NCBI GenBank assembly: GCA_016839605.1
Contig: JAEOTX010000172.1
Coordinates: 1 to 13,966 of the forward strand
DNA: 13,966 bases
Source of the DNA: Candidatus Thorarchaeota archaeon
GTDB taxonomy: Archaea; Asgardarchaeota; Thorarchaeia; Thorarchaeales; Thorarchaeaceae
Direction of reading: 5' to 3'
In this document: in pieces, positions 6,973-12,075 of the stretch
How positions within the stretch are numbered: position 1 is the stretch's first letter
Layout of the letters: the number at the start of each line of letters is the position of its first letter
Notes under the pieces: generated by a model
Database searches by the model: none
What the model saw: only the letters and a program-made list of their open reading frames with translations
What the model was told of the DNA's origin: nothing
Translations under genes and position numbers: made by a program

Positions 6973-8247
6973 ATGCCAGATATTCCTAATGACTTATCGG
7001 CTGATGCCGAATCATTAGCAATCGAAGAAGAGAGCTACGGGTTTCTTGGTTTGAGTAGCAGTCTTTGGCGTCTTGCAATTGTGGTAGGTATTGCGCAGTT
7101 TACCATTAGTATTTGGAATTGGGAGTTCAGTATCTTTCTAGAGACCTTCCTTGAGCCTTGGCAAATGGGCTTGATATTTTCAACCAGTACGATCGCTAGT
7201 CTGTTGGGATATTTCCTCTCTGGCACAATTGCAGATCGTATAGGCCGCAAGAAGACAATGATGTTCGCATTCCTACCTACAGCATTAGGTCTCTTCTTTC
7301 TGGTCAATTATCCTATGTGGCCATTCATCCCTCTAGAGTATGCTTCCATCATGTTTGGATGGAGCTTCATATTGATAATGAGCAGAGCAATACCAGCAGA
7401 TGAGATTGAGAGTACCGGAGGCCATAATGCAGCACGACGATTTACAATGGTACTCTTGCCTGCCTTTATCGTAGATGGCATCAGTCCTGCAATCGGAGCT
7501 ACCTTGCTCAATGTAGGTTTCATCCCAAGAGACCTTCACACATTGGCAGGTATCGGGGCGATTATTGCATGCCTGGCTGCATTCCTCCTGATCCAGGAGT
7601 CTCTAGGTGGAGAAATCCTTGATAGAACAAAGAAAGGCCCACTCATTTCCTTCAGACGACTGGGGTCCAACTTCTGGAAACTATCGGTGGGAATGATTGC
7701 TTTCATATTCTTCTTCAACTCCGCTCTGGCTTACTATGGAAACATCATCGTGGGTGAATGGGGACTCGATGAAACAACTTTTGGATACGCATGGAGCGGT
7801 TTCTCTGTAGCCACTGTGCTATTGATGCATACAATAAGTGGCTATGTTGACAGGGGACTGAAGAAATCTCTATTCCTAGCAATTCTAGGAAATGGAATAA
7901 TCATTACAGTGTTTGCACTCGCAGGTGGTGCTTGGACACTCTTTCTCCTCAACTTCATCTGGGCAGTTCCCGTTGTCATGTGGATTGGTGCTGAGAGAAC
8001 ACTGGTTGTTCAAGATGTGGATGAGGAGAACAAGGGAAGGGCTCTTGGCACGTATCAGTTCATCTCAAGTTCAACGAATCTTGTTGCAGCACCCTTTGGT
8101 GCGTATATCTGGACGGTCTCTGGAAGTCTCAGGACATTGTGGACCATCTCAGGTATAGGAGGAATCATCTCTGCTCTGTTTCTGGGTGGTGCACTGAGAT
8201 CAATGTCAGAGAAGAAGAAAGCTGACAGAAATCTTGACTCGGAGTGA
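6973..8247 (+). CDS. MFS transporter (copy 1)
   Basis: 424 aa with about 12 hydrophobic segments. Motif A GTIADRIGRKK, second-half SGYVDRG, and the E.KGRALG motif. Confidence 0.93.
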   Translation: MPDIPNDLSADAESLAIEEESYGFLGLSSSLWRLAIVVGIAQFTISIWNWEFSIFLETFLEPWQMGLIFSTSTIASLLGYFLSGTIADRIGRKKTMMFAFLPTALGLFFLVNYPMWPFIPLEYASIMFGWSFILIMSRAIPADEIESTGGHNAARRFTMVLLPAFIVDGISPAIGATLLNVGFIPRDLHTLAGIGAIIACLAAFLLIQESLGGEILDRTKKGPLISFRRLGSNFWKLSVGMIAFIFFFNSALAYYGNIIVGEWGLDETTFGYAWSGFSVATVLLMHTISGYVDRGLKKSLFLAILGNGIIITVFALAGGAWTLFLLNFIWAVPVVMWIGAERTLVVQDVDEENKGRALGTYQFISSSTNLVAAPFGAYIWTVSGSLRTLWTISGIGGIISALFLGGALRSMSEKKKADRNLDSE

Positions 8248-8272
8248 CCGAGGAATCTTCTTATCTCGGTTA
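8245..8272. promoter_or_regulatory. Inverted repeat ACCGAG-N12-CTCGGT upstream of the NurA-like gene (operator or hairpin)
   Basis: ACCGAG 8247-8252 and CTCGGT 8265-8270, extendable with G-U pairs. It encloses TTCTTATC and is followed by the AT-rich TAATATAAT (8279-8287). Confidence 0.3.
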
Positions 8273-8312: not shown

Positions 8313-10229
8313 TTGTCAGAAGAAGGCTCACGAATTACACGCAGGCTGAAGAAAACAGGTGAACTTCTTCTGGGTGGGGCCAAACAACAGGTCACAAGTT
8401 ATAGGAGTCGTTTTGATAGTCTCAGTGGAATCTATGATGAATTTCTGTCGGACTACATCAATCAATATCCTGATAGGAAGACGGATCCATCTTTCGTGGA
8501 TCGATTCTTTGGTAAGCGCGAACTGAAATTTGCGGGCATTGATGGCACAATATGCAAGTATGATGTGTTCGACCTTATCATCTTCTTTGCAGGAGCCTAT
8601 TCATCTCATGGAGTGGCTCGGATTAATGATAGCGGGACAATTGAACTTGAGTATGAAGAGCAATTCCTCGAGAGGGGTATTGGCCTATCTAGCGTACTCC
8701 CTATCTACATCAATGAGGTTCCACTTATAGATCAGACAATTCTTGCACGAGGCGAAGATGGAAGTGTGGATCATACTGTAGCACACTCTGACTCTTGGAT
8801 AATTGATAATTCTGCTTTCGCAGACTATATGATGACTCTTTCAGAGTTCTATCTGGCTTATCGCTTGGTCAGCGGGGAGGATCCTGTGGACATCTTGCTC
8901 CTGGACCGAGTCTGCTCTTCCGAAATCTCTTCATCCTATGCTGAAACATCTGATTTCAGAATTGATGTTGAGAAAGAGTGTGGACTTGTTGGTCAGGATG
9001 TAAATGGCAGACCCTTCACCGCTACAGAATGGGTTCATGCGAGAAGGCTCCTAGGCAACATGGAGCTTGGAACTCCGCCCGCACGAGGCGAATATTTGCT
9101 TCCACGACTCATAGCGGAACTGATTCGTGAGAGCTCAGGTTTGACAAGAGACGAGCTTGCCACGCGACTGGGTATTGACTCGGAACCTAGGCGTGAACGG
9201 CTCGATAAGGAACTGGAATCAGCAATTCGAGGCAAGGGAGTTTCCAAAGGCATATTTGTACGCAAAGGCAAGCACTTCAGCATAAAGCCTGAATATAGAG
9301 ACCTCAGGATAAGATTGGAGACCCTTGTAGAAGAAACCTGTGAACGACTCTTTTCGGAGGATTCTTCGATCACCTATGATGAGCGGTTTAAAGTAGGAAA
9401 GCGATGGTTGACAACTAATGACTTGTCATTCCTTGCCCTAGCTTCTTTGTATCTTACAATCGAGAAATGCTGGCAGAACAAGACGCTCCTAGTAGGGGTT
9501 GCCAAAGACACATCTGCGAGGGATTTGAAGAGGCAGGTAATTCCTGTCCTGAATCATCTCGATATATCTGACAAAGGATTCACTGGTGAACAGGGAGACA
9601 CACCTGACACAGACAGGATGATTCTACAGTGGGTATCTCTTCAAGAGCGAGATAGTCTGAAGATACCATGGGCCACTATTGAATACGATACAGCATTCAA
9701 GACAGTAGTGCCTCACTTCGAAAGAAAGCCTGGGCTTGTATCAGGAGCCAGGAGGAATCAAATCTCACTAGAGAAGACTTTCGTTAAGGCTTACTTCCAA
9801 CTCTGTGAAGCTAAGTCGGACCCACGATTAAGGAGTAATGTTCTGCTCTATGATAGACTTGTGTATCCCGAGTTCGATGACAATGATGCACATTTGCTAG
9901 TGCTCAATCATGACTACGAGAGCAGACCTGAATCCCCTGAACCTGTTGAAACTGTCTTCTACTTAGGTGTGGAGAATCCGATTCAGTCCTTCACCTTATC
10001 ACTATTCAAAGCCATGACCAGTGCGAGTATCCCCGAGCTTTTCGGTCATCTGAAGCCGCTATTTATTGCAGATAAGGTGGCAAAGTATAATTTCAGTCAT
10101 TTCAAGAACATGGTCGAGAGCGCAGGAAATTGGCTCATCAATCGGCCAGAGTTGCGTGAATTTCTATTCTATCTGAGCACATTTAGAGAAAGGAGATCTG
10201 ACGTTGAACAGTCACGAAGAGGCACCTAA
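8313..10229 (+). CDS. NurA-family (RNase H-like fold) nuclease, enlarged, with an internal winged-helix-like insertion
   Basis: NurA-type motifs in the expected order: FAGIDGT (D77), ILLLDR (D198), LVGVAKD (K398), FGHLKPLFIADKVAK (D587; cf. GYPxPLxxA[H/D]xxA). Directly overlaps a HerA-like gene. TTG start is uncertain. Confidence 0.82.
   Translation: MSEEGSRITRRLKKTGELLLGGAKQQVTSYRSRFDSLSGIYDEFLSDYINQYPDRKTDPSFVDRFFGKRELKFAGIDGTICKYDVFDLIIFFAGAYSSHGVARINDSGTIELEYEEQFLERGIGLSSVLPIYINEVPLIDQTILARGEDGSVDHTVAHSDSWIIDNSAFADYMMTLSEFYLAYRLVSGEDPVDILLLDRVCSSEISSSYAETSDFRIDVEKECGLVGQDVNGRPFTATEWVHARRLLGNMELGTPPARGEYLLPRLIAELIRESSGLTRDELATRLGIDSEPRRERLDKELESAIRGKGVSKGIFVRKGKHFSIKPEYRDLRIRLETLVEETCERLFSEDSSITYDERFKVGKRWLTTNDLSFLALASLYLTIEKCWQNKTLLVGVAKDTSARDLKRQVIPVLNHLDISDKGFTGEQGDTPDTDRMILQWVSLQERDSLKIPWATIEYDTAFKTVVPHFERKPGLVSGARRNQISLEKTFVKAYFQLCEAKSDPRLRSNVLLYDRLVYPEFDDNDAHLLVLNHDYESRPESPEPVETVFYLGVENPIQSFTLSLFKAMTSASIPELFGHLKPLFIADKVAKYNFSHFKNMVESAGNWLINRPELREFLFYLSTFRERRSDVEQSRRGT
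10191..10195 (+). promoter_or_regulatory. Shine-Dalgarno site (AGGAG) for the HerA-like gene, embedded in the nuclease CDS
   Basis: AGGAG lies 8 nt upstream of the TTG at 10204. Confidence 0.6.
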
Positions 10230-12075
10230 TCACTTATTCACAGACTTCGAAGGAACATTTGATGGCAGGCTTGCAAGAGTAATTCCTGTAGCTGCAAACT
10301 ACACTTCAGAGTGGGCAGGTTCAGCAGCAAGGTACGATTGCAGAATCAAAATCAGATACAATAAGGAGTTAATGGCGCAGCTTGAAGAAGGCATGATGAT
10401 AGCTGTCCGCAACTTCAAGGGCCAGTCCAAGATTGCCAAGAAGAAAGGGGTTCAGCGCTATACTGTGATGGTAATTAGCAAAGTGTGGCCTCTGCATTAT
10501 GGATTGGGCGGCATAAGCGACAGTCACTATTATCCGATGCAAATGGAGATGATAGAACAAGCGGTTCCAGACTGGGACACTGATGACCAGGCAACCATGA
10601 TGGTTCATCTTACTGCAATTCCAATAAACTATGACCTCATTGTACCAGAGAAAGGAGAGATAGAATTCAGAAAGGGTTTCTCGTATCCTCTCATTGGAGA
10701 TAGAGTGCATGTCATCAACCTAGAAACAGTTGACCTCATCTATAATGGTAGAGTCAGAGAGGCACTTGGGCTGAAGAGAAAGGCCACATCTTCTGATCCG
10801 AAGAAAGACCCGCGGGTTGGTGTTCTCAGGATGTTCATGGACTCTGACAAAGAAGTTCCGGTACTCGTGGACCTCTATAAATTGCTTAGGTACCACTTTG
10901 GAGTGTTTTCCTTCACAGGAGGCGGGAAGAGCAATTTGCTCTCAAATCTTTTCAGGAGAATCCTATATCACACGAAGGATACGAAAATTGTCATCTTTGA
11001 TGTCAGCTGTGAGTATCCATTTCTCATGTCTGATGTGTTCTCCGATCCCAAGATCCATGCTAAGGTGATTGTGGAGGAAGAGCCAAGAAAGGCAGAGGAT
11101 TTCGCTAGGTCTATTGTAAAGCCTCGCGATTTTGAGGATGATCCCCGAGCAAATACTGCTCTCAAATCACTATATGACCTTGGCATGGTTACATTCTATA
11201 ATCTTCCTCAATCCCGGATGCCAACATATAGGTCTGTGCTCGATGACATCAACGACCTTCAAAACGATAATGCCTCTAAGCCGACCTATGTCCAAGCACT
11301 TGAACAAATTAAGGCGGCTGTGGCAGGCTGGATGGACTCTTGGGACAAGTCAGATGGTGATGCACTTGATAACAAGTTTGTTGACATGCTGCATAAGGAA
11401 GCTGTGACAGCAGTGGAAGATTTCTCTGTGTATCCGAAGTCAGGTGTGGCTGCGTGGGCTACAACCAGAGCAAAGCTCAAAGATGCCATTGCCAGAACGA
11501 GGAGTTCCAAGAAAAAGGGTGTGACAGTTAAAGACATGGTCAAAATGATGAGTGGTCCTGAACGTGTCATATGCATATCAATAGCAGATCCAGACATTCT
11601 CAGAGACATCGTAATTCGGATGACCGCTTCTGCTCTCAAATATCGGAAGAGAAGCTTTGAGATAAAGCCGCAAATACTGTTTGTCTTCGATGAGGCTCAG
11701 GAGTTTATACCATCAGGCGCTACCGGACAGGTTGCCAGGTGTAGTAGTGCGATTGAGAGATTGCTACGTCAGGGGAGAAAGTATGGACTTGGAGGGGTAA
11801 TCGCAACTCAGAGAATTGCGTATCTGAACACAAACATTATGCAACAGCTGCACACTTTCTTCGTTGGTACACTTCCTAGACCTTACGATAGAACAGTTGT
11901 TAGTAGTTCATTTCAGATTGATCTAAGTATTCTAGACAAGACGCTAGAGTTTCCCCCCGGGGCATGGCTTTTGTCAAGCTATATTGCAATGGGAATTGAT
12001 AACGTACCAGTGTTTGTTAAGGCTGACAACTCTGAAGATGCTCTGCAAGATCATATTGCCGCCATGGCGGAATGA
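10204..12075 (+). CDS. HerA/FtsK-superfamily ATPase (HerA/DUF87-like DNA translocase) with a probable N-terminal HAS barrel
   Basis: Walker A HFGVFSFTGGGKS (K242), IVIFD, Walker B FVFDEAQEF (D496/E497), arginine-finger LRQGRKYGLG (R525), sensor ATQR. Beta-rich N-terminal domain (EEGMMIAVRNF). Confidence 0.92.
   Translation: MNSHEEAPNHLFTDFEGTFDGRLARVIPVAANYTSEWAGSAARYDCRIKIRYNKELMAQLEEGMMIAVRNFKGQSKIAKKKGVQRYTVMVISKVWPLHYGLGGISDSHYYPMQMEMIEQAVPDWDTDDQATMMVHLTAIPINYDLIVPEKGEIEFRKGFSYPLIGDRVHVINLETVDLIYNGRVREALGLKRKATSSDPKKDPRVGVLRMFMDSDKEVPVLVDLYKLLRYHFGVFSFTGGGKSNLLSNLFRRILYHTKDTKIVIFDVSCEYPFLMSDVFSDPKIHAKVIVEEEPRKAEDFARSIVKPRDFEDDPRANTALKSLYDLGMVTFYNLPQSRMPTYRSVLDDINDLQNDNASKPTYVQALEQIKAAVAGWMDSWDKSDGDALDNKFVDMLHKEAVTAVEDFSVYPKSGVAAWATTRAKLKDAIARTRSSKKKGVTVKDMVKMMSGPERVICISIADPDILRDIVIRMTASALKYRKRSFEIKPQILFVFDEAQEFIPSGATGQVARCSSAIERLLRQGRKYGLGGVIATQRIAYLNTNIMQQLHTFFVGTLPRPYDRTVVSSSFQIDLSILDKTLEFPPGAWLLSSYIAMGIDNVPVFVKADNSEDALQDHIAAMAE

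Follow-up and report, generated by a model that had tools for sequence, protein, structure and literature searches.

We analysed a stretch of 13,966 nucleotides (the window), positions 1 to 13,966 of contig JAEOTX010000172.1 from the Candidatus Thorarchaeota archaeon assembly GCA_016839605.1; the features of the window described below lie on its + strand and are given as window positions. An open frame of 638 amino acids with a TTG start (8313..10229) encodes a long NurA-like nuclease and overlaps by 26 nucleotides a gene for a HerA-like ATPase of 623 amino acids (10204..12075). The nuclease carries, between its motif II and the GVAKD strand, an insertion module (residues 205-367; 8925..9413) that contains a predicted winged helix-turn-helix (residues 258-332; 9084..9308). 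The best explanation of the whole, to which we assign a probability of about 0.62, is that the gene product serves as the nuclease subunit in a second, divergent machine of the HerA-NurA type, here termed the long NurA family. This assignment draws on a predicted structure, on sequence and on analogy with HerA-NurA complexes.

The gene call is sound because the starts of its homologues agree and because its relatives use Shine-Dalgarno sequences and non-ATG starts. More than 100 homologues with 54-90% identity begin at the same residue and are of near-equal length, and those that carry a label are Thorarchaeota. In relatives a GAGG-type Shine-Dalgarno sequence was found 5' of the start, and GTG or TTG starts were frequent. 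Canonical Asgard NurA frames span about 355-470 amino acids, and a protein of 638 amino acids is therefore oversized, as a first-pass annotation made from the DNA alone had proposed. The residues which that annotation singled out, D77 (FAGIDGT), D198 (LLLDR), K398 (GVAKD) and D587 (FIADKVAK), were all located where it had placed them. More generally, non-ATG starts (GTG/TTG) were common in Thorarchaeota and relatives (loci L011-L024 and L034), with a GAGG-like Shine-Dalgarno sequence usually 6-10 nucleotides upstream.

An AlphaFold2 model of the 638-residue protein was built on 26 homologues, giving a monomer with a predicted local distance difference test score (pLDDT) of 83.7 and a predicted template modelling score of 0.86. 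When this model was compared with the PDB using Foldseek, the top ten matches were all NurA proteins (E 8e-9 to 1.6e-6). VIA alignment to S. solfataricus NurA (2ygk_A) covered 314 of its 319 residues, from residue 12 to residue 619 of the model, with a Z score of 20.9 and a root-mean-square deviation (rmsd) of 3.9 Å. Weaker VIA matches were obtained with the NurAs of T. kodakarensis (Z 15) and P. furiosus (Z 14) and with chain 8wfd_G of TdpAB (Z 12.9); lower still were the Thermotoga and Deinococcus NurAs (Z ~11) and Argonaute PIWI and EndoV (Z 9-10). At the level of profiles, hhalign aligned the long-family profile with six canonical Asgard NurAs at a probability of 88% (E 3e-6). A profile made from an alignment of 32 diverse long NurA members sharing 21-58% identity (alignment A2) reached P. 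furiosus NurA among PDB sequences (E 0.0044). No PDB sequence was matched by phmmer with the long NurA and a Thorarchaeota-only profile, or by phmmer with the canonical NurA of the same genome, and neither PADLOC nor NCBIfam gave a match for the nuclease. The model predicts that the 638-residue protein has a complete NurA fold of the PIWI/RNase H-like type, including the N- and C-terminal helices.

The catalytic positions were then compared with those of known NurA proteins. Motif I (FAGIDGT), with the first catalytic aspartate in Asp77-Gly78 (8541..8546), agrees with the published form (I/V)(V/A)x(V/I)DG with its catalytic Asp (PMC13748450), and both residues are invariant in Thorarchaeota homologues and in A2. 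The catalytic Glu178 (LSEFYLAY; 8844..8846), the second catalytic aspartate Asp198 of motif II (ILLLDR, with Asp198-Arg199 at 8904..8909) and Lys398-Asp399 of the GVAKD strand (9504..9509) are also invariant in A2, and Asp587, the fourth catalytic position within the motif III helix (PLFIADKVAK; 10053..10085), is kept in at least 90% of its members, so that this conservation of D77, E178, D198 and D587 extends across the family down to 21% identity. In the A2 profile alignment to P. furiosus NurA, AIDGT fell on AVDGS (D51), LLDR on LMDGT (D126) and GH..PLFIADK on GY..PLQLAHH (H411). With canonical Asgard NurA, hhalign paired D77 with D72, E178 with E141 (invariant) and D198 with D160, and the canonical counterpart of GVAKD was GVVKD. 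Glu178 stands 19-20 residues before the motif II aspartate, and E105 of P. furiosus occupies the equivalent place, 21 residues before D126 (PMC3300031). By these profile alignments and the global structural match, D77/E178/D198/D587 are equivalent to D51/E105/D126/H411 of P. furiosus.

Two departures from the usual motifs had been noted by the first-pass annotation. Motif II indeed reads DR, where Arg replaces the usual Gly; the residue after the motif II aspartate varies over the long family (R, L, Q, T, N, H or G). The reading of AD for AH in motif III was also correct, but it is not peculiar to this protein, since four of the six canonical Asgard NurAs carry EAD, not EAH, at the fourth site. 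The motif III histidine is thus not strictly defining for NurA, and an aspartate at the fourth site is also used by the Argonaute of T. thermophilus (PMC3300031). Judged from its sequence, long NurA is predicted to carry an intact D-E-D-D metal-binding set.

The most conspicuous feature of the protein is its insert. From D198 to K398 there are 200 residues, compared with 47 from D160 to K207 in the canonical NurA of the same genome. A sub-threshold Pfam NurA match covers residues 74-411 yet only positions 4-152 of the Pfam model, and a large insert is therefore indicated. DSSP applied to the AlphaFold2 model gave the order of elements of a winged helix, namely a first helix at residues 262-272, a short strand at 277-278, a second helix at 279-285, a third at 291-306 and a wing (315-324) made of strands 315-318 and 321-324. 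In the whole-model VIA comparison, residues 258-332 were placed on the N-terminal domain of RNase R (Z 9.6, rmsd 2.2 Å, 65 residues); the other matches to this segment were RNA polymerase III chain 8iue_P, TtgV, OhrR, IdeR and ScpB. The insert folded alone (residues 205-392) reached a pLDDT of 87.2. When it was compared by VIA with 48,161 representative chains, all of the 50 best rows were winged-helix domains (Z 7.8-9.0), mostly aligned over 57-68 residues at an rmsd of 1.3-3.0 Å, the longer ones reaching up to 99 residues at higher rmsd. These 50 rows comprised MarR, ArsR and IclR regulators, Z-alpha, linker histones, the Rpa2 winged helix and ScpB, with no subfamily dominant. Foldseek with the isolated insert gave no match at E<=0.001 (best E 0.04 or higher), and the A2 profile gave weak sequence matches to MarR-family SarZ (E 0.014) and to Z-alpha (E 0.035 and weaker). 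The DSSP order and the VIA rows bear out the earlier proposal of an inserted winged helix that separates the second catalytic Asp from GVAKD.

The insert region was present in 32 of the 32 aligned members of the long family, and ordinary NurA is without it. Because every aligned member carries it, the insert defines a family of about 600 amino acids. The size of the canonical Asgard frames and the 47-residue spacing in this organism's own genome show that the insertion is no feature of ordinary NurA. Nor is it unique to the present protein, being shared by the whole archaeal family of about 600 amino acids.

For the winged helix, the first-pass annotation had inferred a role in specificity, sensing or autoregulation, for which we obtained no direct support, the domain being poorly conserved and weakly basic or neutral. 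Its column identity of 0.57 was the lowest of any region, next to 0.59 for the N-terminal helix and 0.68-0.77 for all remaining regions. Its net charge is +4 in the present protein (-17 for the whole protein), with a mean of +2.6 in Thorarchaeota and +1.2 family-wide (range -11 to +9). Within Thorarchaeota, an Arg in the wing and the RLDKEL helix are conserved. A homodimer prediction with two copies of residues 205-392 scored 0.02 (mark 0.42) and was neutral on dimerisation. The predicted winged-helix fold alone would be compatible with DNA binding, with partner binding or with a structural role, and does not decide between them.

The gene that overlaps the nuclease gene encodes an ATPase matched by Pfam DUF87 (PF01935) above its cut-off (E 1.5e-13) and by PADLOC HerA (E 5.5e-45); no HAS-barrel Pfam match was found in it. 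It contains a Walker A motif (SFTGGGKS, 10909-10932; FTGGGKS, 10912-10932), a Walker B motif (VFDEAQ, 11683-11700) and GRKYG with the Arg finger (11773-11787). In its Walker A motif, Ser stands where Gly or Ala is usual as the first P-loop residue. Overlaps of 26-29 nucleotides between the nuclease gene and the HerA-like gene recur in relatives. Eleven further contexts of the family were inspected: a DUF87 gene lay directly downstream in nine, often with an overlap, an unscanned gene of 546 amino acids in one and none in one; with the window included, the pairing is seen in 10-11 of 12 contexts. Judging from the sequence, the long NurA gene appears to be coupled in translation to that of the HerA-like ATPase, whose Walker A and Walker B motifs and Arg finger are all intact. 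Taken together, the predicted fold, the residues and this pairing support an active, HerA-coupled NurA-type nuclease. Among the loci collected, a member of 635 amino acids on a 370-kb contig (P0130; L025:6001-7908) was without an adjoining HerA gene and was followed by a P-type ATPase gene.

The same genome also encodes a canonical NurA of 385 amino acids (Pfam 74.6 bits), whose gene overlaps a canonical herA encoding a HAS barrel and DUF87 (G000:C205:5046-8684); no mre11 or rad50 was found near this pair in the 3.9 kb read. A CTP synthase gene adjoins the canonical nurA-herA pair (loci L001 and L003). Around the long form, the neighbours conserved in Thorarchaeota are a homologue of glycogen-debranching enzyme (GDE), MFS transporters and an MBL-fold gene. 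Outside Thorarchaeota, seven of nine contexts were housekeeping ones, including ribosomal-protein neighbourhoods. Two distant members had other surroundings. One long-NurA/HerA pair (P0143, 26% identity; L028:3890-13938) lies between dndB and a divergent dndA-dndE-dndD and is a candidate phosphorothioate-linked restriction module. A Thermoplasmataceae member (P0153; L027:2475-11939) stands beside an 836-amino-acid SIR2_2+ORC/Cdc6-like gene and genes for HNH, DUF6884 and a Dam-type methyltransferase, a neighbourhood that looks like a defence island.

An exhaustive profile search of 1.84 billion representatives returned 393 relatives (E<=0.001), most of which, where full length, have 580-680 amino acids. 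The matches in named genomes were Thorarchaeota at 54-88% identity, then many Bathyarchaeia at 38-42% and one Thermoplasmataceae member. The nearest ESM Atlas clusters, of about 600-634 amino acids, were from Bathyarchaeota and Nitrososphaerota, and Pfam NurA recognises only 14-17% there; that Nitrososphaerota are carriers is, on these clusters, a lead only. Among 151 sampled Asgard genomes, canonical NurA was found in 147 (71 of the 72 of high quality) and the full-length long form in about 35; within the genome's own family, 15 of 26 genomes carried the long form. The identities to five other genomes were similar for the two proteins, 59/34/40/39/40% for the long form and 70/34/33/35/34% for the canonical one. 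The Thorarchaeota pair behaves as a vertically inherited yet dispensable chromosomal paralogue of the universal canonical NurA-HerA. In another Asgard family (f12, e.g. G011:C1:39079-39219), weak matches were limited to the GVAKD region of frames of about 450 amino acids that score as Pfam NurA; these may be an intermediate-length class of NurA.

By analogy with the complexes of S. solfataricus, P. furiosus and T. kodakarensis, the long NurA-like protein would form a dimer seated on the HAS face of a hexamer of the HerA-like ATPase. In T. kodakarensis, the NurA pyramid is docked by its base onto the HAS face of HerA, whose tunnel delivers the DNA (PMC12977600). The HerA-like motor would thread a DNA end via its tunnel, the strands would come apart at the dimer base, and each strand would be cut at a two-metal site. 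In P. furiosus NurA, the 98-residue M domain (residues 189-286) follows D126 and precedes the next PIWI strand; it makes up the apex of the dimer pyramid, on the rear side of the channel, and supplies a second dimer interface (PMC3300031). Because the insert of long NurA shares its interval with the M domain, at the dimer apex away from HerA, two winged helices would be expected at the distal (exit) face of the dimer. They would most likely be an accessory module, and not a transcription factor; such a module would grip a nucleic acid or another protein and influence which DNA is processed. The pair would most likely act beside the canonical NurA-HerA in DNA-end processing, for repair or for clearance of linear DNA. 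The stable synteny, the housekeeping neighbours, the canonical-like divergence and the lack of linked modification or mobile genes favour a repair or housekeeping role, and we consider it probable that the physiological role is that of a chromosomal DNA-end-processing paralogue.

Several observations weigh against this interpretation. The Pfam NurA model (PF09376) scores the protein at 12.9 bits (E 0.077), under the 21-bit gathering cut-off, so that membership of long NurA in NurA draws on structure prediction and profile comparison; across the long family, Pfam NurA was matched at E<=0.1 in 18 of 32 members, with a best E of 2.8e-6. Binding of DNA by the winged helix is uncertain because the domain is not consistently basic over the family, and its position relative to the channel follows, by analogy, from the insertion site. 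Moreover, the long form is absent from 11 of the 26 same-family genomes, several of them 96-99% complete, which fits defence at least as well as repair, and the neighbourhoods of the two distant members, between dndB and dndA/E/D in one and beside SIR2+ORC/Cdc6-like, HNH and Dam methylase genes in the other, point the same way.

These last observations bear on a possible, although in our view unlikely, alternative, in which the pair protects against viruses or plasmids: foreign linear DNA would be destroyed by the motor and long NurA, with the winged helices reading a mark of self or non-self, as TdpAB does. Patchy presence beside a universal canonical copy would suit such a function, as would the structural match to the TdpAB nuclease chain and the match of the HerA partner to PADLOC HerA models. 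In addition, both strands are degraded by HerA-NurA of T. kodakarensis, for which an antiviral role was suggested in the same study (PMC12977600). However, domain and PADLOC scans revealed no modification, methylase or other defence gene in the window, the nuclease itself is without a PADLOC match, and no mobile-element genes flank the pair. DndB was not found in this 80%-complete genome with a model that matched two control genomes. DndE was not found either, but its model matched 0 of 14 control genomes and the result is hence uninformative. The conserved housekeeping synteny, the divergence like that of canonical NurA and the prevalence of housekeeping contexts outside Thorarchaeota also speak against defence.

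A more specific proposal, which we regard as rather improbable, is that the two distal winged helices serve as a reader of some DNA feature, on which it would depend whether HerA-driven degradation is permitted or blocked. Such a reader might respond to a modified backbone or base, to non-B DNA (Z-like, for example) or to a short palindrome like CTCG-N-CGAG. If it were true, long NurA would be a HerA-NurA with built-in self/non-self discrimination or site gating, and the model would bear on the question of repair versus defence for archaeal HerA-NurA.

The palindrome is prompted by the region upstream of the gene, where an inverted repeat, CTCGG-N5-CCGAG followed by TTCTTAT (8238..8264), is conserved in Thorarchaeota and here overlaps the MFS stop codon. 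Of 15 Thorarchaeota loci (alignment A5), 12-13 carry the consensus CACTCG-N6-CCGAG-nAAn-CTTCTTAT some 75 to 45 nucleotides before the start, and where another gene lies upstream (L012/G055) the element still accompanies the nurA-like gene. Covariation in the upstream hairpin was not above shuffled controls. A genome-wide scan for the palindrome gave three matches in total, of which the two others lie one inside an open reading frame and one at the very start of an open reading frame; a regulon was therefore rejected. The repeat could serve as a promoter or operator, or it could terminate the MFS gene, and autoregulation through it is a lead only.

That the winged helix is a transcriptional self-regulator, or provides sequence-specific landing, by binding this inverted repeat seems to us very unlikely. 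The CTCG-N6-8-CGAG element with its T-rich box is conserved upstream and travels with the gene, and a dimer would offer two winged helices in two-fold symmetry; nevertheless, the element overlaps the MFS stop codon and could terminate that gene, it showed neither covariation nor a genomic regulon, and the winged helix is the least conserved region, with conserved acidic residues in its recognition helix (RLDKELE). Hardly credible, finally, is the reading that the NurA-fold protein has lost catalysis and serves the HerA-like motor only as a scaffold or adaptor. The loss of the motif II Gly (DR), the replaced motif III His and the Pfam score below threshold might suggest it, but all four metal-binding residues are acidic and show little or no variation in the family, and Asp at the fourth site recurs in the T. 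thermophilus Argonaute and in most of the canonical Asgard NurAs compared.

We found no description of long NurA or of its winged-helix insert in the literature (full-text searches, NurA and winged helix), and we know of no experimental characterisation of Asgard NurA proteins. A 2026 review describes Asgard NurA as canonical with variable termini and mentions neither a long form nor a winged-helix insert (PMC13748450). Many archaea (among them Thorarchaeota, other Asgard archaea, Bathyarchaeia and Thermoplasmataceae) carry, beside the universal pair, a second one of the HerA-NurA type with a distinct architecture. This second pair offers a concrete case for the debate over whether HerA-NurA resects ends for recombination or destroys foreign DNA.

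Among characterised systems, the archaeal HerA-NurA machines (2YGK; 3TAI/3TAL/3TAZ; 9X1L/M/N) are those that long NurA resembles most fully. It shares with them the fold (Z 20.9, 14 and 15, respectively), the DG of motif I, the GVxKD strand, a catalytic Glu placed some 20 residues ahead of the Asp of motif II, a motif III of the form LxxA[H/D]xx[AV]K and an adjacent, overlapping herA-type gene. Unlike them, it has about 250 extra residues, of which about 160 are the insert with the winged helix; its motif II Gly is replaced by Arg, its Pfam NurA score is under the cut-off, mre11 and rad50 are absent from its surroundings, and it is additional to the canonical pair. The M domain of P. furiosus NurA is, like the insert, placed in the PIWI fold after motif II and before the Lys-bearing strand, but it is described as helices and hairpins and not as a winged helix, so that the two are likened by position only; moreover, an M domain has been reported for euryarchaeal NurA only (PMC13748450).

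TdpAB (PDB 8WFD), a phosphorothioate-sensing HerA-like/NurA-like defence complex of thermophiles (named in PMC12914056), likewise combines a NurA-fold nuclease with a HerA-like ring, and one distant relative of long NurA lies in a dnd cluster; however, the TdpAB chain, of 358 residues, is without a large insert, and the window contains no phosphorothioation genes. D. radiodurans NurA-HerA (7F6D; PMC9960219) has the same two-component architecture and a NurA-fold match (Z 10.6), but this match is much weaker, and an N-terminal extension is found in place of the internal insert. The PIWI domains of prokaryotic Argonautes (T. thermophilus Ago, SPARSA/SPARDA) share the RNase H-like core (Z ~10) and, as D660 of Ago, the Asp of the fourth site, whereas long NurA is without MID and PAZ and its NurA matches are far stronger, extending over the whole core and the N- and C-terminal helices. 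Long NurA is, on these comparisons, a variant of the known HerA-NurA machines and not a new category, and it would provide a natural case in which a domain of the DNA-reader type has become part of a nuclease with the PIWI fold.

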